Positions 7,642-52,285 of a stretch of 63,054 nucleotides of DNA are shown piece after piece; position 1 is the first letter of the stretch; the number at the start of each line of letters is the position of its first letter. A model generated the notes under the pieces. That model was not told where the DNA came from, did not search any database, and was given only the letters and a program-made list of their open reading frames with translations. The position numbers were made by a program, and so were the translations under genes. This DNA is from Desulfofustis sp. (GTDB lineage: Bacteria > Desulfobacterota > Desulfobulbia > Desulfobulbales > Desulfocapsaceae), in assembly GCA_013042475.1 (NCBI GenBank), contig JABDQA010000028.1:1-63054 (forward strand). The letters are read 5' to 3'.

Positions 7642-7927
7642 TGCAGGAGATCTATGGTTTCCAAAAGATAGATTTACTTGACAGGCAAATAGGCTGATGT
7701 GAGAACTAATTCAGGATCGTTTTTAATCAGATTCAAAAGTAATAAAGAAATGTTTGGGTACCTTCGAGTTTTGGGATTACTTACTGATAATTCTGACTAA
7801 AATTGCTACAATGCAGCAGTTTAAACCGACTAAGCTTTCATCAATATGTTCTCGATAATGATGAGAATATAAAAGCATCATCTAAGTGAATTTAGATGAG
7901 GGGATCAATCGTGATAGGGAAAAAGCA

Positions 7928-9088
7928 ATGTTAGAAACCGTCTACAGTGTGAGTGACAACCTGGACCCCCTTGCCGGGATCCGCAATGTGGTCGCCGACT
8001 GCAGAGAGCAGCTTGGCGGTAGAAAACCGGCTGCGGGTATGTTTTTCACTTCCTGCATGGAGGCTGATTATGTCCAGATGCTGGAGGAGATCCTTGGGGC
8101 TTTTCCCGATATCGAGCTGATCGGCTGCACTACTGACGGTGAGATCACTCAGGACCGAGGGTTTACCGAAGACTCATCGGCGCTGCTGCTGCTCATTTCC
8201 GAAGAAATCGCTTTTGCTGCAGGGATTGCCGAGAATATTTCAGAGACCCCTCAAGAATCGGTCGCCAATGGATATAAGCATGCTCTAGATAAGCTCAATG
8301 CAGAACCTGTTCTCGCATTTGTACTGCCAGACGGTATTACCACAATGAATCTACCCATTGAAGCCTATTTGAGATCGGAAATGGGGCAGTCGATGCCGAT
8401 ATTTGGAGGCTCGGCCGGTGATGGCTTCAGAATTGTTCAGACCTTTCAATTTTGTGGAGAAGGTGTTTATACCGACGCCATGCCCTTATTGCTCTTAGCA
8501 GGAGATTTGGAGGTCAGCTTCAACATTGCCATCGGACCGGTTCCGTATGGTAAATACTACCGAATAAATAAGGTAGAAGGAAATATCGTCTATACGATAG
8601 ACGGAGTGACCGCATTGGAGTTCTATGAGCGCTTTTACGGGAAATACATCGAAGATAGAGAACTTTCCTTTTTCCCTTTAGCAGTATACACAGGTGACAA
8701 AGAAGACTTTGTGCTTAGGGATTCCGTAAATATAGATAGAGAGAAGGGCAGCATTTCATTTATTGGTCGTTTCGAGGAGCCTTGCAGGGCAAGACTTACA
8801 CAAGTTACCCGAGATGAAACCCTAAATTCAGGACATGCTGGATCTGCACAAGTACTTTCAGCTTTCGGTGATAAATCACCGGATTTGATTTTGCTCTTCT
8901 CCTGTACCTCCCGTCGTCACGTGCTTGGCTCCCGCACTGACGAAGAGTTTTTGGTGTTGCAGCAAGACAGGCAGGGGGTGCCGTATTTCGGGTTCTATTG
9001 TTATGGAGAGATCAGCCCCTTCACCAATGATGGTCCAGTTCATTTTCACAGCGACACATGTATTTCGGTGGCTTTGAGAAGTAAATAA
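7928..9088 (+). CDS. FIST-domain sensory protein
   Basis: FIST_N/FIST_C-like pattern (IELIGCTTDGEI, IFGGSAGDG, FGFYCYGEISP). I prefer the ATG at 7928 with AGGGA about 8 nt upstream over the GTG at 7886. Confidence 0.75.
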   Translation: MLETVYSVSDNLDPLAGIRNVVADCREQLGGRKPAAGMFFTSCMEADYVQMLEEILGAFPDIELIGCTTDGEITQDRGFTEDSSALLLLISEEIAFAAGIAENISETPQESVANGYKHALDKLNAEPVLAFVLPDGITTMNLPIEAYLRSEMGQSMPIFGGSAGDGFRIVQTFQFCGEGVYTDAMPLLLLAGDLEVSFNIAIGPVPYGKYYRINKVEGNIVYTIDGVTALEFYERFYGKYIEDRELSFFPLAVYTGDKEDFVLRDSVNIDREKGSISFIGRFEEPCRARLTQVTRDETLNSGHAGSAQVLSAFGDKSPDLILLFSCTSRRHVLGSRTDEEFLVLQQDRQGVPYFGFYCYGEISPFTNDGPVHFHSDTCISVALRSK

Positions 9089-45432: not shown

Positions 45433-46074
45433 ATGATTGCAGGCATCGACAATCCATTGGTCTTTCTCGGTGCCGGTATACTGCTCAATCTCTATCCGGG
45501 CCCCGACACTCTCTATATCATCGGCCGCAGCCTGGCCCAGGGCAGAGGTGCCGGCGTTTGCGCCGCACTGGGGATCAGCAGTGGGGCGCTGATCCACACC
45601 CTGCTCGGTGCGTTCGGGTTGTCGGCTGTACTCGCCGCCTCGGCCTCGGCCTTCACCACGGTGAAATACCTCGGAGCTGCCTACCTGATCTACCAGGGGA
45701 TTCGGCTGATTCTCGACCGCTCGGTGCCAGCTGCGCCACGGAGCAATGGACAGATCCGGTCAGGGTTGCTGCGCATTTATCGGCAGGGGGTGCTGACCAA
45801 TCTGCTCAATCCCAAAGTGGCGGTTTTCTTCCTCGCCTTTCTACCCCAGTTCATTTCCGTCTCGAGTCCCAACAAAGTACTCTCCTTCATTCTACTTGGC
45901 CTGATCTTCATCACCACTGGCACTATCTGGTGCGTCATCGTCGCCCTCTTTTCCTCGGCCATCGCCTCTCGGCTGCATGATTCGGGCCGCAACACAGGCC
46001 GGTTGAGACAGATCAACGGTCTGCTGTTCATGCTCCTCGGTCTCAAACTGGCCGTCATCGAAGTCGATCTATAA
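45433..46074 (+). CDS. LysE/RhtB family amino-acid exporter
   Basis: 213 aa with about 6 TM segments. N-terminal PGPDTLYII and NLLNPKVAVFFLAFLPQF are typical of the family. Confidence 0.85.
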   Translation: MIAGIDNPLVFLGAGILLNLYPGPDTLYIIGRSLAQGRGAGVCAALGISSGALIHTLLGAFGLSAVLAASASAFTTVKYLGAAYLIYQGIRLILDRSVPAAPRSNGQIRSGLLRIYRQGVLTNLLNPKVAVFFLAFLPQFISVSSPNKVLSFILLGLIFITTGTIWCVIVALFSSAIASRLHDSGRNTGRLRQINGLLFMLLGLKLAVIEVDL

Positions 46075-46133
46075 CGGTTTTTTTCCTTTACCGCCTGGCG
46101 ACTGTTTTAAAACAGCAGTCGAGACATTGGCAA

Positions 46134-46185
46134 AATGTACATTGACATTAGCATAATTTTTCATATAATATTCATATGTACATAT
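46134..46185 (+). promoter_or_regulatory. sigma70-type promoter of the lexA operon flanked by two ATGTACAT palindromes (candidate LexA operators)
   Basis: TTGACA (46142-46147), a 16-nt spacer, then TATAAT (46164-46169). Palindrome AATGTACATT (46134-46143) overlaps the -35 element, and the 12-bp perfect palindrome ATATGTACATAT (46174-46185) lies just downstream of the -10 element. The lexA ATG is at 46201. Confidence 0.55.
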
Positions 46186-46200
46186 ACATAGGGGCGGATT

Positions 46201-46836
46201 ATGCTTACTGAAAAACAGCAGCATTTCTTCGATTATTTAAAACGGCGGCTGCAGGATGAGGGCCAGCTGCCCAGCCTGCGCCAGGCGGCCAGGGAGCTTG
46301 AGATCAGCCACAACGCCGTGGCCCAGCTTCTGGCCCAATTGGAAAAAAAAGGCATGGTGGCCCGCGAAGGGCGCTACAGCCGGACATTGCGACTGCTGCC
46401 GAGGGATTCCCGGCCGGAGCGAGCTCTCGGCAGGGAACTGCCGATAATCGGCAGGGTTACTGCCGGTATGCCGATGTATGCTCAGCAGGAGTGGGCCGGC
46501 AGCGTGGTGGTCGATGGCAAAATGTTCGGGGGGGAGAGTCTATTCTGTTTGCGCATCAGCGGTAAGTCGATGCGTGATGCCGGCATCTTCGATGGTGATC
46601 TGGCCATTTGTGAACCACGTCAGTATGCCGAAAATGGTGAAATCGTTGCCGTACTGCTGCACCAGGAGGAGGCGACCGTCAAACGGTTCTTCCTGCGGCC
46701 CGACTGCATCGAACTGCATCCCGAGAACAGCGACTATCCGGTGATGCGCTATGGATTCAGCGAGGTTCTGGTGCAGGGCAAAGTGGTCGGCATCGTCAGA
46801 GGCCAGCATACCAGTTTTTCACGGCTGCCAGACTAG
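46201..46836 (+). CDS. lexA: LexA repressor (S24 peptidase)
   Basis: N-terminal winged HTH (LPSLRQAARELEISHNAVAQLLAQLEKKGMV), the Ala-Gly cleavage site VTAGMPM, catalytic Ser in SGKSM, and Lys in ATVKRF. Confidence 0.92.
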   Translation: MLTEKQQHFFDYLKRRLQDEGQLPSLRQAARELEISHNAVAQLLAQLEKKGMVAREGRYSRTLRLLPRDSRPERALGRELPIIGRVTAGMPMYAQQEWAGSVVVDGKMFGGESLFCLRISGKSMRDAGIFDGDLAICEPRQYAENGEIVAVLLHQEEATVKRFFLRPDCIELHPENSDYPVMRYGFSEVLVQGKVVGIVRGQHTSFSRLPD

Positions 46837-46845
46837 TGCAAAAAA

Positions 46846-47703
46846 ATGGAAAACGAGTGCACACCGGGTCCGGCAACGGCGCTGATCCGGGGACAACAAG
46901 CCGGCTCTTCCTGTCTGGTGATGACCGGTACCAGCGGCTATTCCTACCTGGAGTGGGTGGATAGCGGCTTCTATCCGCCCGGAACCAGATCGGCCGCCAT
47001 GCTGGAATTCTACGGGCGCTTTTTTTCGGTGGTCGAACTCAATTACACCTGGTACCAGATGGCCCGTTCCGATGTACTCACCAGAATGCTGGCCGCCGCC
47101 CCTGCCCACATCATTTTTGCCGCCAAGCTGACGCGTACGGTCACCCATGAGCGGGAAGAGGACTGGCGTGAGCAGGTGCAGCGCTACCGCCAGGGAATCA
47201 GCACCCTGGGGAAAAGGCTTGCCGCCATTCTGGTGCAGCTGCCGCCCGATTTCGACCGCACCGTTTCCAACCGCCGTTTTCTCGCTGAACTGCTCGATTA
47301 CCTGCAGGGAATGCCGGTGGCGGTCGAATTCCGTCATGCCTCCTGGGCGGTCGACACGGTGTTTGGTGAGCTCGAGCGCAGGCAGGTCACGCTGGTGAGC
47401 GTCGATGAACCCGACCTTCCGGGTCTTTTTCCCCGTCTCGATGTGGTTACCAATCCGGCCCTGTTCTATGTGCGTTTTCACGGCCGGAACAGAAAGGGGT
47501 GGAAAAACGGCAACATGCAGAAAAAGTTCGATTATGACTACCCTGAGCAGGAGCTGCACCAGTGGTGCGAGCACGAGTTGGGCCCGCTGTCGAGCAGGGC
47601 CAGCCGAGGAATCATCTTTTTTAACAACCACGTGCGAGCCCAGGCGCCGCGCAACGCACTGCTGCTTAATTCGCTGATCGGTAAAAAAGCGGCACGAAGC
47701 TGA
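46846..47703 (+). CDS. DUF72 (YecE-like) family protein
   Basis: GTSGYSYLEW..FYP, FFSVVELNYTWY, ILVQLPPDF, AVEFRH.SW, YVRFHGRN..W and IFFNNH..AQAPRNA follow the DUF72 motif order as I remember it. An alternative start is the ATG at 46921. The stop TGA overlaps the imuB ATG (TGATG). Confidence 0.85.
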   Translation: MENECTPGPATALIRGQQAGSSCLVMTGTSGYSYLEWVDSGFYPPGTRSAAMLEFYGRFFSVVELNYTWYQMARSDVLTRMLAAAPAHIIFAAKLTRTVTHEREEDWREQVQRYRQGISTLGKRLAAILVQLPPDFDRTVSNRRFLAELLDYLQGMPVAVEFRHASWAVDTVFGELERRQVTLVSVDEPDLPGLFPRLDVVTNPALFYVRFHGRNRKGWKNGNMQKKFDYDYPEQELHQWCEHELGPLSSRASRGIIFFNNHVRAQAPRNALLLNSLIGKKAARS

Positions 47704-48884
47704 TGATGAACCACCGACGTTTCATTCTGCACCTCAATGTGGCCGATTTTGCCGTGGCTGTCGAGCGGGTTGTCGATCTGGGGTTGCGTGACAAGCCGGT
47801 CATCGTCGCCCCTCTGCAGGCGGCCCGGGCGGCAGTCTACGACATGAGCGAGGAGGCATACAGGGACGGGGTTCGGAAGGGCATGCTGCTCACCCGGGCA
47901 ACCCGGATATGTCGGGCAGCCCGGGTGCTGCCGCCGCGTTTCGATCTCTACCGTAAGGCCATGGCATCGTTCGTCGACGAGGCCCGCGGCTACAGCCCGG
48001 TACTCGAACACGGCGCCGAAGACGGTCATCTCTATCTCGACATCACCGGCACCCACCGGTTGTTTGGTACCCCTCCCGACGTTGGCTGGCGGCTGCACCG
48101 GCAGATCCGTTGCAAACTCGAAATAGACCCGATCTGGAGCCTGGCCGGCAGCAAACTGGTCTCCAAGATAGGCTCGCGCCTAGTCAAGCCGGTGGGCGAG
48201 TATATCGTGGCCGACGGTGAAGAGCAGCGGTTTCTGGCGCCCCTGCCGCTCCACCTGTTGCCGGGACTGAGCAATGGTGAAAGGCAGCGATTGAGCCAAT
48301 TCAATATTGTCAGAATCGGAGAGCTGGCGGCGCTCAGCAGGATGCAGCTCGAAGGTGTGTTCGGTCGTCGGGGGGAGACGCTTTTCGAACTCAGTCGCGG
48401 CATAGACGAAAACGCCGTCCGGCCTGAGGAAGAACGGCCGCCTCGAGTGGTCCGGGAACATATTTTCAGCGATGACTGTGCCGACCGGACAGTGCTGAAA
48501 GGCGTAGTCGGTGCCCTGGCGGCCCAGCTTGGCATGGAACTTCGCGCTACCCGAATGCAAGCCCGGCGGGTGGGACTGCAGCTCGACTATACGGACGGTA
48601 CCACGGTTTCGAGACAGGCCAGCGTCCGCAAGGGCGTCGCCGATGACGACTCGCTGCTTCGTCTAGCTATGACGGCTCTCGAGCGCAGCCTGACAAGACG
48701 GACCAGGGTGCGCAGCTGCCGTCTGATCGGCGATCGGCTGCATGGCAGATCACCTCAGCTGAAGCTTTTTACCGACCCTGCCACCGGCCGGAAGAAAGAA
48801 CAGCTCCTGACCGCCATGGACCGCATCCGACAGCGGTTCGGGCGGGAGGCTATCCGGATGGGCAGCCAGCCCGTCCTGCATTGA
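47703..48884 (+). CDS. imuB: ImuB-like catalytically inactive Y-family DNA polymerase
   Basis: It aligns by eye to the DinB N-terminus, but the acidic triad is lost: HLNVADFAVAVE versus HVDMDCFFAAVE, and EDGHLYLDIT versus SLDEAYLDVT. It sits directly upstream of dnaE2. Confidence 0.8.
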   Translation: MMNHRRFILHLNVADFAVAVERVVDLGLRDKPVIVAPLQAARAAVYDMSEEAYRDGVRKGMLLTRATRICRAARVLPPRFDLYRKAMASFVDEARGYSPVLEHGAEDGHLYLDITGTHRLFGTPPDVGWRLHRQIRCKLEIDPIWSLAGSKLVSKIGSRLVKPVGEYIVADGEEQRFLAPLPLHLLPGLSNGERQRLSQFNIVRIGELAALSRMQLEGVFGRRGETLFELSRGIDENAVRPEEERPPRVVREHIFSDDCADRTVLKGVVGALAAQLGMELRATRMQARRVGLQLDYTDGTTVSRQASVRKGVADDDSLLRLAMTALERSLTRRTRVRSCRLIGDRLHGRSPQLKLFTDPATGRKKEQLLTAMDRIRQRFGREAIRMGSQPVLH

Positions 48885-48902
48885 TCAGTCCCGGCCCCGG
48901 TC

Positions 48903-51893
48903 ATGGTCCCCCTGCGTGTCCGATCCTGTTTTTCCCTGTTGCGCGGCACTGCCTCGCCCGGTTCGTTGTGCGGGCGGGCTGCGGGCTTTGGCTACACCAG
49001 ACTGGCCTTGACGGATCTGGAAAATCTCTACGGGCTCTGGTCGTTTCTGGCAGCCTGCGAGCGGCACCGGATCAGACCGATCATCGGCACTGAAATCGAA
49101 ACCGGTGCGGCCGACCGGCTGGTGCTGCTGGTGCGCAACGAGGTCGGCTATCGCAACCTGTGCAATATTATCAGCCGCAGGAAGCGTAAAGACAAATTGG
49201 ACGTCAGCGCCGAAACGGCCTCTTTGTATGAGGGGCTCGTACTGCTGAGCAGATCCGAGACCATGCTCAGAACAAGCCGTGCATGTGGACTCGAGGCGGC
49301 GGCAGATCTCGGCAGCCGGCCGACGGAGAATGGCAATAGGCTGAGGCATCTGGCTGCAACTCTTGGAATCCCGGCTGTAGCCGTTCCCGACAGTGACCTT
49401 GGCGCTCCCGGCGAGCACCGCGCTCAGCTTTTATTACGGGCCATTGGTGCTGGAGAGACCCTTGATTCCGGGGGACAGGTGAGGGACCAGGGGCAACCGC
49501 TCGAATCTCCCGAGGTGTATGCCAGCCGTTTTTCCATCTGGCCTGAAACACTCCAGGCCACCGAGGAAATCGCCGATCGCTGTACCTACCGTCGCCCGGC
49601 CGCCGGTTTGCAGATGCCGCCCTGGCAGCAGCACGGCTGCCAATCTGCCGGCGTGGTATTGAGGCAGGAGGCCTACGAGGGAGCCCGGGAACGTTATGGG
49701 TTCACCCTGCCGGACCAGGTTGTCGAGCGTCTCGATTATGAACTGGGCGTCATCGAATCCATGGGCTTTTCTTCTTATTTCCTGGTGGTACGCGACATTG
49801 TCCAGCCGCTGCAGCCGGATGGCACCAGAAAACGCCGCCGTATCTGCGGCCGGGGGTCCGGGGCTGCCTCCCTGGTGGCCTATTGCCTGAGTATCACCAA
49901 TGTCTGCCCTATCCGTTACAATCTCTACTTCGAACGTTTCCTGAACCCGGGCAGAAGCGACCCTCCTGATATCGATATCGATTTTGCCTGGGATGAACGT
50001 GACCAGGTGCTGGCGGAAGTGCTTGGTCTTTTCGGGGAACGGGCGGCGATGGTCTGCAATCACGTCTGTTTCAAGCCGCGTGGTGCAATCCGGGAAACGG
50101 CCAAGGCCTACGGACTGCCGGGCTATGAAATCTCCAGGATGACCAAACGGCTTCCCTGGTTTTTCAAACGCAGCGACCTGAGCCTGCAGGAGCAGATAGC
50201 CACACTGCCGTCGCTCAAGGACCAGGATTTCTCTGGTCCCTGGGCCGAGATAATCGACCGTGCATCCGAGCTTATCGGGCTGCCCCGCTATCTTTCGGTG
50301 CATCCCGGAGGCGTGGTGATCACCGAGGGACCGGTGCATGACTATGTGCCGGTCGAGCAGGCTCCCAAAGGCGTGCCGATCATTCAGTGGGAGAAAGACG
50401 GGACGGAAGAATCCGGGCTGGTGAAAATAGACCTGCTCGGCAACCGGAGCCTCGGGGTGATTCGCGATGCCATCGGTAATCTGCGAAAAAACGGTGCCGA
50501 TTTCTCCGAACAGGGCTGGACTCCCGAGGACGATCTGCAGACCAAGGCGGCGGTCGGCGCCGGAAAAACCATGGGTTGCTTCTATATCGAAAGCCCGGCC
50601 ATGCGGCTGCTCCAGCAGAAGGCGGGAAGCGGAGATTTCGAGCAGCTGGTGATCCAGTCATCGATCATCCGTCCGGCGGCCAACGAGTTTGTCCGGGAAT
50701 ATGTCAGAAGACTCCACGGCGGTGGCTGGGACCCCCTGCATCCGGCCCTGGAGGCAGTACTCGACGAAACGTTCGGGTTGATGGTCTACCAGGAGGACGT
50801 CTCCAAGGTTGCCGTTGCCTTGGCCGGCTTCAGTCACAGCGAGGCGGACGGCCTGCGCAAGGTGCTCTCCAAGAAAGACCGGGAATTCAGGCTCAGGGAT
50901 TATCGCGACAAGTTCTACCGGGGGTGCAGAAAAAACAATATCGAATCGGCCGAAATTGACCGGATCTGGGCCATGATGATGAGCTTTGACGGCTACTCGT
51001 TCTGCAAGCCGCACTCGGCCTCCTATGCCCGGGTATCGTTTCAGTCTGCCTACCTGAAAACCCACTTCCCGGCAGAATTCATGGCCGCGGTGATTTCCAA
51101 CCAGGGCGGTTACTACTCGACCTTTTCCTACGTGTCCGAGGCCAAGCGGATGGGGCTCATCATCGACCCGCCCGATGTCCGAACTAGCGAGTTGTCCTGG
51201 CGCGGCCAGGGCACCAGGATCAGGGTCGGTCTGCAGACCCTGCACGGCCTGTCGCAGGAGACCTGTGAACGCATCCTCGGCTGCCGGAAAGAGCGCCATT
51301 TTCGAAGTTTTTCTGATTTCTTACAGCAGGTGCAGCCGGCCGAGCATGAGATTCGCGTGCTAGTCGACAGCGGCGCCGTGGATGGATTGGACACCAAAGC
51401 AAATCGGAGCCGCCTCTACTGGGAGGCGGCAGCCCGGGAAGTGGGGGCCAGCGCCGCCGGGGGAGCCGGTCTGTTCCCGGTGGTGGAGTTCGACGCCCCA
51501 CCGCTCAGGGATCAGTCACCGATTGAGCGTCTGCGCCGGGAGTACCAGGCCCTCGGTTTTCTCTGCCGGGCTCATCCGGTCAGTCTGATCGGTAAAGGGA
51601 AGGTACACACATGCAAGGGAGTCGATCTGGCCGCCCATGTGGGCCGGACCGTTGACTTTATCGGCCTGCTGCTCACCGGTAAGATCGTTTCCACCAAAAC
51701 AGGGGAGGCCATGGAATTTCTCACCTTTGAGGACGAGACGGCAATTATCGAGACAACTTTTTTCCCCGAAGTATACCGCCGTTATGCCCATATACTGTCG
51801 GCCCAGAAAGTCTACCGCCTCAGGGGCTTGGTTGAACAGGATTTCGGTGCGCTGACGCTTACGGTGGAAAAGATCAGACTGCTAAGTAATTAA
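48903..51893 (+). CDS. dnaE2: error-prone DNA polymerase DnaE2 (ImuC)
   Basis: 996-aa Pol III alpha paralog with a degenerate PHP start (PLRVRSCFSLLRGTAS), the palm/fingers region (PPDIDIDFAWDERD, HPGGVVI, KIDLLGNRSL, FCKPHSASYA) and a C-terminal OB region. No tau- or beta-binding tail is evident. Confidence 0.92.
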   Translation: MVPLRVRSCFSLLRGTASPGSLCGRAAGFGYTRLALTDLENLYGLWSFLAACERHRIRPIIGTEIETGAADRLVLLVRNEVGYRNLCNIISRRKRKDKLDVSAETASLYEGLVLLSRSETMLRTSRACGLEAAADLGSRPTENGNRLRHLAATLGIPAVAVPDSDLGAPGEHRAQLLLRAIGAGETLDSGGQVRDQGQPLESPEVYASRFSIWPETLQATEEIADRCTYRRPAAGLQMPPWQQHGCQSAGVVLRQEAYEGARERYGFTLPDQVVERLDYELGVIESMGFSSYFLVVRDIVQPLQPDGTRKRRRICGRGSGAASLVAYCLSITNVCPIRYNLYFERFLNPGRSDPPDIDIDFAWDERDQVLAEVLGLFGERAAMVCNHVCFKPRGAIRETAKAYGLPGYEISRMTKRLPWFFKRSDLSLQEQIATLPSLKDQDFSGPWAEIIDRASELIGLPRYLSVHPGGVVITEGPVHDYVPVEQAPKGVPIIQWEKDGTEESGLVKIDLLGNRSLGVIRDAIGNLRKNGADFSEQGWTPEDDLQTKAAVGAGKTMGCFYIESPAMRLLQQKAGSGDFEQLVIQSSIIRPAANEFVREYVRRLHGGGWDPLHPALEAVLDETFGLMVYQEDVSKVAVALAGFSHSEADGLRKVLSKKDREFRLRDYRDKFYRGCRKNNIESAEIDRIWAMMMSFDGYSFCKPHSASYARVSFQSAYLKTHFPAEFMAAVISNQGGYYSTFSYVSEAKRMGLIIDPPDVRTSELSWRGQGTRIRVGLQTLHGLSQETCERILGCRKERHFRSFSDFLQQVQPAEHEIRVLVDSGAVDGLDTKANRSRLYWEAAAREVGASAAGGAGLFPVVEFDAPPLRDQSPIERLRREYQALGFLCRAHPVSLIGKGKVHTCKGVDLAAHVGRTVDFIGLLLTGKIVSTKTGEAMEFLTFEDETAIIETTFFPEVYRRYAHILSAQKVYRLRGLVEQDFGALTLTVEKIRLLSN

Positions 51894-51910
51894 CTAGTCT
51901 CCATCTAGAA

Positions 51911-52036
51911 AGGCTCTTTTGGTCAATATCTTTGTTGTGCGTGAAATTTTACCCTCGGAATATTAACTATATGCCTGTGGTAAAATTTCTCGCACGCCTC
52001 GATCTTGAAACAAAAATTCTCGTTTTCGGATGGAAA
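51911..52036 (-). repeat. copy B of the palindromic repeat family (inverted relative to copy A)
   Basis: The perfect 11-bp inner stem GAAATTTTACC/GGTAAAATTTC encloses the loop CTCGGAATATTAACTATATGCCTGT. The reverse complement shares AAATTTTACCACAGGCATAT and ATATTCCGAGG with copy A. It starts 18 nt after the dnaE2 stop. Confidence 0.8.
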
Positions 52037-52285
52037 CTAACGACGCTATAAAATCGGTAGGAGAAAGGAGGGCGATGGGTGTGGCCTGATTAGGTGATTT
52101 GTTGAGCCTTGAAGAAGCCGTGAAATCCTCAACAACAGTAGGATTGGTGTCTTGTCGATTGACCTTCGAGTAGAGATTGTGGTATACCAGAAACATATAT
52201 CTTTGTTGATAATCGTGTGTTTTTCTGAACTGTTACCTATTATAAGGTAATAGTTTCAGATTTCTCTCTGGTGAGGACGGACACC

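Follow-up and report, generated by a model that had tools for sequence, protein, structure and literature searches.

A conserved DUF72 gene precedes an inactive Y-family polymerase gene in a predicted LexA-repressed dnaE2 operon of Desulfofustis sp.

The closest known relative of the locus described here is the putative DnaE2B-iPolY(gbDinB2-like)-RecA mutasome (Timinskas & Venclovas 2019, PMC6511836; NAR 2026, PMC12926913). The locus and the published system have in common a gbDinB2-like inactive Y-family polymerase (iPolY) that bears a RecA-N-terminus-like (RecA-NT) motif and lacks ImuB-C, an adjoining dnaE2 closest to DnaE2B, a lexA gene in first position, and no imuA. In the literature, the RecA-NT motif of iPolY is read as RecA doing the job of ImuA. 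Supplementary Table S4 of PMC6511836 gives the arrangement 'LexA->{1}->iPolY->DnaE2' for Desulfocapsa sulfexigens and Desulfococcus oleovorans, classes the D. sulfexigens iPolY as gbDinB2-like and tabulates a RecA-N-terminus-like motif for the Desulfocapsa protein. The gene between LexA and iPolY appears there only as an unnamed '{1}' and is not discussed, and neither 'DUF72' nor 'YecE' occurs in the text or accessible supplements of PMC6511836 and PMC12926913. What the Desulfofustis locus has in addition to the system as published is a conserved DUF72 gene at that place.

The canonical lexA(2)-imuA-imuB-dnaE2 cassette of Pseudomonas, Caulobacter and Mycobacterium is also similar. It too is SOS-controlled, and in it polymerisation falls to a second Pol III alpha, accompanied by a dead Y-family adaptor that carries motifs of the clamp and RecA-NT types. 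In the published model of that cassette, ImuB-C contributes to ImuA binding. As for DUF72, the family is 'enriched to some degree' near PolB2 translesion operons (PMC11791011), where it likewise accompanies a damage-inducible, multi-subunit translesion polymerase module with a RecA/RadA-family partner. The PolB2 polymerase belongs to family B, however, while family C plus a dead Y is found here, and the association described below is near-obligate within the clade. TM1631 (1VPQ) and EF0366 (1VPY, 1ZTV) are of the same family and fold as the DUF72 protein of this locus, and share its E, K, Q, E, D, H, R/N and NN positions; no genomic association with polymerases has been reported for them, nor any activity for a member of the DUF72 family. 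TM1631 has been predicted to be a DNA enzyme of endonuclease-IV type, with a similar mode of DNA binding (PMC3828134), and DUF72 has been called structurally related to UvdE and endonuclease IV (PMC11791011), with which it has in common a TIM barrel whose C-terminal face bears acidic and histidine residues.

The genes lexA, DUF72, iPolY and dnaE2 lie co-directionally on the + strand at 46201-51893 of the window, the whole 63,054-nt stretch of DNA that was analysed (Table 1). An earlier note on this DNA had described the gene order, the coordinates, three tight junctions and one strong promoter, all of which were confirmed from the sequence. The TAG stop codon of lexA ends at 46836 and is followed by 9 nt and the DUF72 ATG at 46846; the DUF72/iPolY junction is -1 nt, as stop and ATG overlap by 1 nt in TGATG (47701-47705); and the TGA of iPolY (48882-48884) is separated by 18 nt from the ATG of dnaE2 at 48903. 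In LexA, the cleavage site VTAG (86-89), the serine in GKSM (121-124) and the lysine in VKR (160-162) are intact. The TTGACA hexamer of the lexA promoter is kept across related loci. Of 71 Desulfobulbales loci, 61 have an operator motif ahead of lexA, with the consensus ATGTAnATnTACAT built from 111 sites, and none of 71 shuffled controls has one; within the 63-kb window the motif occurs only twice, both times at the lexA promoter. Judged from its sequence, the four-gene unit is a predicted SOS operon under LexA repression, hence damage-inducible, with co-transcription putative from the spacing of the genes.

Table 1. Features of the predicted operon, numbered from the first letter of the window.
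Feature	Position	Strand	Description
lexA, 211 aa	46201..46836	+	TIGR00498 160 bits (cut-off 111); Peptidase_S24 and LexA_DNA_bind
DUF72/YecE-family TIM-barrel protein, 285 aa	46846..47703	+	PF01904, 184 bits
iPolY, gbDinB2-like, 393 aa	47703..48884	+	IMS and IMS_C; catalytically inactive by sequence
dnaE2, 996 aa	48903..51893	+	PHP, DNA_pol3_alpha, finger, HHH_6, OB; Pol III alpha paralog
Sigma-70-type promoter	46142..46169	+	TTGACA 46142-46147, 16 nt, TATAAT 46164-46169; 12/12 consensus matches
Operator-like palindrome 1, ATGTACATTGACAT	46135..46148	.	1 mismatch to ATGTA-N4-TACAT; overlaps -35 hexamer
Operator-like palindrome 2, ATGTACATATACAT	46176..46189	.	Perfect; between -10 hexamer and ribosome-binding site
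Beta-clamp-binding-type motif QLKLF of iPolY, aa 352-356	48756..48770	+	Q352, L355 and F356 invariant in alignment
RecA-N-terminus-like motif of iPolY, aa 362-388, RKKEQLLTAMDRIRQRFGREAIRMG	48786..48866	+	Local alignment to RecA N-termini

The Y-family protein had been taken for an ImuB with replaced catalytic acidic residues. The replacement is real, since the D/D/D/E positions read N/A/G/H in an alignment with an active PolY, and the strings HLNVADFAVAVE and EDGHLYLD are present. The identification as ImuB was rejected: the ImuB-C domain was not found, blastp against ImuB1 yielded a non-significant 22-24 bits, and the published gbDinB2-like group fits, with 162-179 bits to gbDinB2-like inactive PolYs and an alignment that runs end to end with those of Nitrospira japonica and Citrifermentans bremense. 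The RecA-NT-like motif scores 38-45 against 26 +/- 4 for shuffles (maximum 43-45), which is statistically modest alone; aa 366-389 also give a weak match to Pfam DUF4113.

The assignment of the last gene to DnaE2 holds, including its degenerate PHP domain, whose motif I reads RVR in place of HxH here but is intact in sister cassettes that lack DUF72. The polymerase aspartates are retained (PDIDIDF at aa 355). The DnaE2B references score 225 and 214 bits and those of DnaE2A 145 and 119 bits, which sets this protein apart from the canonical cassette, where DnaE2A is the partner of ImuA and ImuB. The locus differs from that cassette as well in lacking ImuB-C, significant ImuB1 similarity and ImuA. 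As the earlier note had stated, no imuA is present: tblastn and HMM searches of the 63-kb window detected no ImuA, ImuB-C or RecA homolog, and imuA was not found in the fetched related loci either. The cassette is thus, with high confidence, an error-prone polymerase operon of the DnaE2B-iPolY-RecA type. The view that it defines an ImuA-less variant of the mutasome stands as to the lack of ImuA but not as to novelty, since PMC6511836 and PMC12926913 already describe ImuA-less DnaE2 systems. Nor does DUF72 occupy an 'imuA slot': the published system never has imuA, and in the Geomonas and Nitrospira sister cassettes nothing stands between lexA and iPolY, so that DUF72 is an addition and not a replacement for ImuA.

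The adjacency of DUF72 and iPolY could have been unique to this genome, but about 150 independent loci show it, drawn from two Desulfobacterota classes, a plasmid and more distant lineages, with DUF72 at 54-91% identity and its family motifs intact. Among Desulfobulbales, 79 of 80 species loci have a DUF72 match directly upstream of iPolY, and the 80th has no upstream sequence. A metagenome scan that started from DUF72 gave 80 Desulfosarcina-type loci, with lexA upstream in 61/61, iPolY downstream in 65/68 and dnaE2 in 35/37, the denominators differing per neighbour. The same four genes are carried by a MOBQ (mobilizable) plasmid of Desulfosarcina ovata. The identities of the four genes to the window correlate with one another at 0.92-0.96, indicating co-divergence, and DUF72 ranks first in conservation (65%, against 55% for iPolY). 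The six nearest outgroup DUF72 clusters have 40-46% identity; in four of them, one from a Planctomycetota MAG, the next gene downstream encodes a catalytically dead PolY (23-44% identity), with lexA and dnaE2 present or absent alongside. Exceptions exist: one Desulfobulbales genome has a DUF72 with an in-frame internal deletion next to intact iPolY and dnaE2, and numerous loci have further small genes lodged between members of the cassette, so that the genes are not translationally coupled everywhere. Altogether, the linkage is real and far beyond chance, and DUF72 qualifies as a stably co-inherited member of an SOS operon, which gives it the DNA-damage-tolerance context that had been proposed.

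The DUF72 protein matches TM1631 (1vpq) with E = 7.8e-36 and 7.8e-47, and its AF2 model (pLDDT 84.6) has a TM of 0.77 to the same structure. The first ~22 residues of the called ORF show no conservation, and the true start may therefore lie further downstream. Each of the eight strands has invariant polar residues at its C-terminal end. All cassette-linked DUF72s retain E64, K94, E161, D187, R214 and N261, most of which also match TM1631 and EF0366, and the model places these six at the C-terminal ends of barrel strands. Because this catalytic face is retained, DUF72 is probably an enzyme and not a scaffold, to judge from alignment and model. Whether the enzyme resembles AP-endonuclease-type TIM barrels is another matter. 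Neither UvdE nor endonuclease IV is among the best 50 PDB matches of Foldseek, in which the non-DUF72 entries are generic TIM barrels, and a profile comparison of DUF72 with E. coli Endo IV by hhalign returned 0.1% probability. The top TM-score among the non-DUF72 matches listed, ~0.5, belongs to a sugar epimerase, not a nuclease; we take this epimerase to be a member of the xylose-isomerase-like group. A nuclease role is plausible, although fold and profile tests gave it no support, and the specific assignment as a DNA phosphodiesterase or nuclease is one that we would rather doubt than accept.

How should the presence of DUF72 in this operon be explained? One possibility is chance insertion or an annotation artefact. 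The unconserved start of the ORF and the fact that small selfish genes do enter this operon at other loci would fit, but conservation across about 150 independent loci refutes the idea, and we give it practically no credence. Another is that DUF72 stands in for ImuA in an ImuB-DnaE2 mutasome, as a structural subunit, non-catalytic or regulatory, that binds the dead Y-family protein stoichiometrically. In all lineages that have the pair, DUF72 is the gene just before the dead PolY, with a 1-nt overlap in the window; this order parallels imuA->imuB, and imuA itself was not found in the window or the fetched loci. This explanation is nonetheless improbable. The Y-family member here is not an ImuB and does not have the domain that contributes to ImuA binding; it retains a RecA-NT-like motif, which makes RecA the expected ImuA equivalent; and the closest sister cassettes have no gene at that position. 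Furthermore, DUF72 keeps a full catalytic-face set, unlike the degenerate iPolY, ImuA1 and ImuA2, one genome has kept its polymerases without an intact DUF72, and at many loci the coupling is interrupted by inserted genes.

A less easily dismissed, though still unlikely, alternative is that DUF72 is an SOS-induced enzyme of a separate pathway, engaged in independent repair or acting on a non-DNA substrate, which merely profits from a convenient LexA promoter. The DUF72 family is large (about 7,400 clusters at 50% identity) and occurs mostly outside such polymerase operons; generic DUF72 genes on plasmids were not beside polymerases (4/4 sampled), two of the six nearest outgroup clusters have no PolY after DUF72, and similarity to DNA nucleases was not detected by Foldseek or hhalign. 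Against mere co-regulation, the cassette-type DUF72 is almost never away from iPolY, and the four genes co-diverge and travel together on a plasmid. Above all, DUF72 and a dead PolY stay paired at outgroup distances with or without lexA and dnaE2, which points to PolY, and not to the promoter, as the constant partner. We regard a true functional partnership of DUF72 in the damage response as quite likely.

The best explanation, and probably the correct one, is an ImuA/ImuB-independent DnaE2B-iPolY-RecA operon under LexA repression that includes a lineage-specific DUF72 enzyme gene. Upon DNA damage, RecA filaments would trigger LexA self-cleavage, and DUF72, iPolY and DnaE2 would be produced from one transcript. 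The dead PolY would serve as the adaptor through which DnaE2 is recruited to the beta clamp and RecA, and RecA, encoded elsewhere, would take the role that ImuA has in the canonical mutasome. DUF72 would work as an enzyme, not a scaffold, on the damaged DNA that the polymerase also acts on; the likeliest roles would be metal-dependent incision or end-cleaning, making or tidying a 3' end or gap for DnaE2. A comparable layout is found in Nitrospira loci L082 and L085, where a gbDinB2-like iPolY and a DnaE2B-closest dnaE2 are accompanied by one extra, translationally coupled gene for an enzyme of DNA-lesion-processing type. In those loci, however, the extra gene belongs to the uracil-DNA-glycosylase (UDG) superfamily and comes after dnaE2 (iPolY-dnaE2-UDG), and lexA is not adjacent. 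One point against the explanation favored here is that the sister cassettes are presumably functional without DUF72.

The ImuA-less type of operon was already known, and a conserved DUF72 gene in front of iPolY is an addition to that picture. With it, a large uncharacterised protein family gains a testable link to DNA-damage tolerance.

Re-reading of the window located the four genes of the cassette, all on the plus strand, exactly where the earlier note had placed them. The junctions also proved to be as described: the lexA stop codon is separated from the next ATG by 9 nt, the DUF72 and Y-family genes overlap by 1 nt (TGATG, 47701-47705), and 18 nt precede dnaE2. The strong promoter claimed for the cassette is a perfect TTGACA-16-TATAAT at 46142-46169, and no convincing internal promoter or terminator was found on the plus strand inside the cassette. 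No terminator-like hairpin was predicted in the 377-nt gap 3' of dnaE2 (51894-52270), which holds a 77-aa antisense ORF (51963-52196). The G+C content of the segment that contains the cassette (46001-52000) is 0.58-0.61, most of the window being at about 0.51-0.55; a low-GC stretch at 24-26 kb harbors ordinary MoeA and M24 peptidase genes. The chromosomal flanks of the cassette are syntenic in relatives: genes for an aminotransferase and LysE precede it, and one for an AMP-binding enzyme follows.

Coordinates of features in the window and in related loci (L-numbers are handles of loci compared with the window cassette)
Feature	Sequence	Coordinates	Strand	Evidence or remark
lexA	window	46201-46836	+	ORF; TIGR00498, 160 bits
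DUF72 gene	window	46846-47703	+	ORF; PF01904, 184 bits (cut-off 25.3)
Y-family gene (iPolY, 393 aa)	window	47703-48884	+	Pfam IMS, IMS_C
dnaE2, Pol III alpha paralog	window	48903-51893	+	Pfam PHP, DNA_pol3_alpha, finger, HHH_6, OB
Operator-like 14-bp palindrome 1	window	46135-46148		one mismatch; over the -35 hexamer
Operator-like 14-bp palindrome 2	window	46176-46189		perfect; between the -10 hexamer and the ribosome-binding site
UDG-superfamily gene, Nitrospira	L082	11220-11864
UDG-superfamily gene, Nitrospira	L085	11220-11861
UDG-superfamily gene, Nitrospira	L086	4937-5578
DUF72 and 'DNA recombination-mediator protein' genes, Rhizobium phage RHph_Y65	L174	5007-5735, 5719-6264
Spacer insert, metagenome locus	L105	6711-7622
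Spacer insert, metagenome locus	L092	3409-4335
Spacer insert, metagenome locus	L108	2226-3275
Spacer insert, metagenome locus	L117	4646-5074
Spacer insert, metagenome locus	L128	4310-4726
Spacer insert, metagenome locus	L067	6020-6866
Spacer insert, metagenome locus	L131	8564-8950
Spacer insert, metagenome locus	L118	8824-9186

Alignment with an active Y-family polymerase places N, A, G and H at the catalytic D/D/D/E positions. Because all four acidic residues are replaced, the protein had been rightly called inactive. Its assignment to ImuB does not stand: the protein ends about five residues past a RecA-NT-like motif, HMM search of the window detected no ImuB-C domain, similarity to the ImuB1 proteins of P. 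aeruginosa and Niastella is insignificant (blastp, 22-24 bits, E = 0.09-0.28), and the best matches, aligned end to end, are members of the published gbDinB2-like group of inactive polymerases (Citrifermentans bremense, 179 bits; Nitrospira japonica, 162 bits). For these reasons we designate the protein iPolY, an inactive Y-family polymerase, rather than ImuB. The iPolY of Desulfocapsa sulfexigens, which is 52% identical to that of the window, has been classed as gbDinB2-like (PMC6511836, Table S4). A clamp-type motif, QLKLF, is found at aa 352-356 of iPolY and is followed by RKKEQLLTAMDRIRQRFGREAIRMG, which lies at the expected C-terminal place and agrees with the motifs tabulated for the gbDinB2-like group (PMC6511836, Table S4). 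Comparison of RKKEQLLTAMDRIRQRFGREAIRMG with RecA N-termini gave scores of 38-45 versus 26 ± 4 for shuffles, that is, 3-5 sd above them, with the best shuffle equal to the score.

The polymerase aspartates of DnaE2 are intact (PDIDIDF at aa 355). When its N-terminal 400 aa were compared with the known types, the scores, which measure similarity and do not make a tree, were 225 and 214 bits for DnaE2B, 164 for DnaE2X, and 145 and 119 for DnaE2A. Judged by similarity, the window DnaE2 is closest to DnaE2B rather than to the DnaE2A group. [quoted passage not shown] We conclude that the cassette belongs with the DnaE2B-iPolY-RecA systems and that DUF72 adds to it a fourth component, which is conserved and probably an enzyme. 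The kind itself was already known; the form that carries DUF72 is a new variant.

This classification bears on the view that DUF72 occupies a slot left by imuA. Five ImuA sequences (tblastn) and an ImuA HMM run against the window ORFs gave a best E of 0.25, and ImuA, ImuB-C or RecA genes were detected neither in the window nor in about 87 related loci. In sister cassettes of the same iPolY group the slot is empty: the order is lexA-iPolY-dnaE2 in Geomonas and in two related metagenome loci, with nothing between lexA and iPolY, and no gene separates lexA from iPolY in 12 of 14 gbDinB2-like operons (PMC6511836, Table S4). The two exceptions in that table, Desulfocapsa sulfexigens and Desulfococcus oleovorans, are written 'LexA->{1}->iPolY->DnaE2'. 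In a Desulfocapsa sulfexigens MAG (L081), the order is lexA-DUF72-iPolY-dnaE2. The unnamed '{1}' is the DUF72 gene, so the arrangement had been tabulated earlier, but the gene went without a name or comment; the terms 'DUF72' and 'YecE' are absent from the text and supplements examined of PMC6511836 and PMC12926913. On the strength of blastp, the HMM tests and the literature, we reject the ImuB/ImuA-slot reading. What survives of the earlier note's mutasome is a locus devoid of ImuA in which DUF72 is not there by chance; the imuB identity and the role of DUF72 as ImuA stand-in are lost.

Sequence identities set the cassettes with DUF72 apart as their own sub-branch: their iPolYs share 44-56% identity among themselves and 30-34% with the Geomonas and Nitrospira types, while DnaE2 identity is 53% within the sub-branch vs 44-47% to the same types. 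The Nitrospira iPolY-dnaE2 operon differs in another way, as lexA is not adjacent and a translationally coupled UDG-superfamily gene (PF03167, 131 bits) lies at its 3' side, overlapping the dnaE2 stop codon. Here too, an operon of this kind has taken up an enzyme of lesion-processing type.

The alternative that DUF72 is a chance insertion was examined from both ends of the pair. In a scan that started from iPolY and kept one genome per species, the closest 80 of 428 relatives, all of them Desulfobulbales, were inspected: in 79 the gene directly between lexA and iPolY matches DUF72, and the 80th locus has 29 nt of upstream sequence only. A scan of metagenomes with a more distant DUF72 as the query yielded 80 further loci; where the sequence sufficed for counting, lexA was upstream in 61/61, iPolY downstream in 65/68, and dnaE2 present in 35/37. 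The same four genes are carried by a 136-kb mobilizable (MOBQ) plasmid of Desulfosarcina ovata, which belongs to a different class (Desulfobacteria) from the window. The genes also diverge together: across 81 loci with all four at full length, identity to the window correlates at 0.92-0.96 between cassette genes, and among the three genes behind lexA mean identity is highest for DUF72, at 65%, against 59% for DnaE2 and 55% for iPolY.

The association extends beyond the cassette. In an exhaustive search of the DUF72 family, which comprises about 7,400 clusters when grouped at 50% identity, the cassette type corresponds to essentially a single cluster of full length (58% identity, 336 bits), the next scoring 202 bits or less. 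When six of the nearest outgroup clusters were sampled (38-46% identity), a Y-family gene was found immediately downstream of DUF72 in four, one of them from a Planctomycetota MAG. One of these four has lexA and dnaE2, another the start of a dnaE2 PHP domain, and two have no adjoining dnaE2; the polymerase is catalytically dead in all four, with the RecA-NT-like tail kept. In this branch of DUF72, the dead Y-family polymerase is thus the partner that stays constant. Both scans, the plasmid, co-divergence and the outgroups show that DUF72 is no chance insertion. None of four generic plasmid DUF72 genes sampled lies next to a polymerase. Two of the generic genes, in plasmids of Paraburkholderia (L170, 2091-4918) and Rhodanobacter (L171, 1-387 and 4007-4915), are near a gene annotated as belonging to the phosphoadenosine-phosphosulfate-reductase family, and the latter has a DUF2786 gene nearby. 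A DUF72 protein is also encoded by jumbo phages of Rhizobium (about 206 kb), where its gene overlaps a downstream one annotated 'DNA recombination-mediator protein'; the overlap is no more than suggestive. A paper that seemed to tie DUF72 to phage nucleases deals in fact with DUF723 and is irrelevant.

The linkage has its limits. In one Desulfobulbales MAG (L069, about 7750-8001), DUF72 has lost an internal segment in frame; the deletion joins the N-terminal GYSYTEWV to a C-terminal MQKKFDYDY...FFNNHVRAQAP segment and leaves lexA, iPolY and dnaE2 intact. It could be genuine or an error of assembly. Many loci harbor small genes inserted in the cassette spacers (23S-rRNA-IVS four-helix-bundle, PDDEXK_3 and ROK-family kinase genes), among them a ROK kinase between iPolY and dnaE2 and, in the metagenome locus L067, two tandem copies of 23S-rRNA-IVS. 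Not every locus, therefore, has its genes in tight translational coupling.

LexA retains the Ala-Gly cleavage site (VTAG), the serine (GKSM) and the lysine (VKR). The two palindromes that flank the promoter are the sole matches to their motif in the 63-kb window. Among 71 Desulfobulbales loci, at least one site was found upstream of lexA in 61 and at least two in 43, compared with 0/71 in shuffled controls. The 111 putative operator sites yield the consensus ATGTAnATnTACAT, a 14-bp palindrome, which we take to be unlike the LexA boxes of E. coli, Gram-positives, Geobacter, Myxococcus and Bdellovibrio. Desulfosarcina-type cassettes show arrays such as TTTACATTGACATTTACATTT in place of ATGTAnATnTACAT. 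From the intact LexA motifs and the conserved palindromes at the cassette's own promoter, the natural inference is that the cassette would be under autoregulated SOS control through these putative operators.

Crystal structures of DUF72 proteins have been available since 2004, and we know of no demonstrated function for this large and widespread family. The window protein matches TM1631 (1VPQ, E = 7.8e-36) and also EF0366. Its AF2 model is a TIM barrel (pLDDT 84.6) with TM-scores to 1vpq of 0.77, normalised by the query, and 0.84, normalised by the target. In the alignment and the model, residues invariant in the cassette clade map to the C-terminal ends of all eight strands (S33/Y34, E64/N66, K94/R97, Q131, E161/H164, D187, H212/R214/N215 and N260/N261/H262). 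Most are common to TM1631, EF0366 and the distant DUF72s linked to Y-family polymerases, and E64, E161, D187, H212 and H262, at the C-terminal face of the modelled barrel, are candidate metal ligands. We read the invariant residues as the signature of a working enzyme, so that DUF72 is probably enzymatic. Its active-site face is kept, whereas that of the adjacent iPolY is gutted.

What the enzyme might act on can be argued from context. TM1631 has been predicted to bind DNA like endonuclease IV (PMC3828134); DUF72 is reported to be enriched near PolB2 operons, and its fold has been described as related to UvdE (PMC11791011), the only paper that our literature search found to link DUF72 with LexA or translesion synthesis. 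Together with the presumed SOS control, the dead polymerase partner and the glycosylase-family gene of Nitrospira, these reports point to damaged DNA as the substrate. Kinship to AP-endonuclease-type TIM barrels, to which the earlier note had looked, found no support. The 50 best PDB hits that Foldseek gave for the model included neither endonuclease IV nor UvdE; beyond the DUF72 structures they were generic TIM barrels. Of the non-DUF72 hits listed, a sugar epimerase of the xylose-isomerase-like group scored highest, with a TM-score of about 0.5. Alignment of DUF72 profile A3 with E. coli Nfo (endonuclease IV) by hhalign gave a probability of 0.1%, the profile being shallow (Neff 1.9), so that a remote kinship may have escaped it, and a profile search of PDB sequences returned DUF72 structures and spurious DegQ hits only. 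As Foldseek and hhalign provide no link to endonuclease IV or UvdE, a nuclease or end-cleaning role is something that we infer and not a finding; it is possible, if somewhat doubtful. In the locus whose cassette has a 43%-identical DUF72, an AP_endonuc_2 gene of the xylose-isomerase-like TIM-barrel type (L176, 1884-2666; L177, 136-918) is found about 3 kb upstream, with feoB between it and the cassette.

The PHP domain of DnaE2 admits two readings. It is degenerate, as the earlier note said, with RVR in place of HxH in motif I (48903-48930). Among cassettes with DUF72, motif I reads LRVRS in 77 of 78 Desulfobulbales loci, mostly LTVRS in Desulfosarcina-type loci and LIARS in L176; it is intact (HLHVHS) in 5/5 Geomonas-type and Nitrospira-type loci examined, which lack DUF72. 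One reading is that DUF72 could supply a metal-dependent hydrolytic activity gone from the PHP domain. The other is that the correlation may be plain phylogeny, since the cassettes with DUF72 are probably one clade.

A speculation that would accommodate the partnership, and that we regard as rather unlikely, is that DUF72 proteins are dedicated lesion-processing enzymes that work with dead Y-family scaffolds and ready a primer end for a recruited polymerase. DUF72 would act, for instance, by incision or as a 3'-end-cleaning phosphodiesterase, creating or tidying the primer end that DnaE2B here, and PolB2 elsewhere, would extend; it might in addition replace what the DnaE2 PHP domain has lost. 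If true, the DUF72 family of about 7,400 clusters, E. coli YecE included, would acquire its first biochemical function, and an 'incise-and-bypass' module would be defined.

The tempting view of DUF72 as a stand-in for ImuA is now corrected, and one branch of the DnaE2B-iPolY-RecA systems gains a fourth, apparently enzymatic, component. The DUF72 cassettes and the UDG-carrying Nitrospira operons suggest repeated recruitment of lesion-processing enzymes into operons of this kind. DUF72 itself is now linked genetically, specifically and repeatedly, to a Y-family polymerase that is catalytically dead and is usually accompanied by DnaE2 and LexA. As several cultured strains carry the cassette, such as Desulfocapsa sulfexigens DSM 10523, Desulfofustis glycolicus DSM 9705, Desulfopila aestuarii DSM 18488 and Desulfosarcina ovata 28bB2T, the role of DUF72 is directly testable. 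The value of the finding is that, in culturable organisms, a probable SOS operon connects a large, structurally solved but functionally uncharacterised family with a dead Y-family scaffold.
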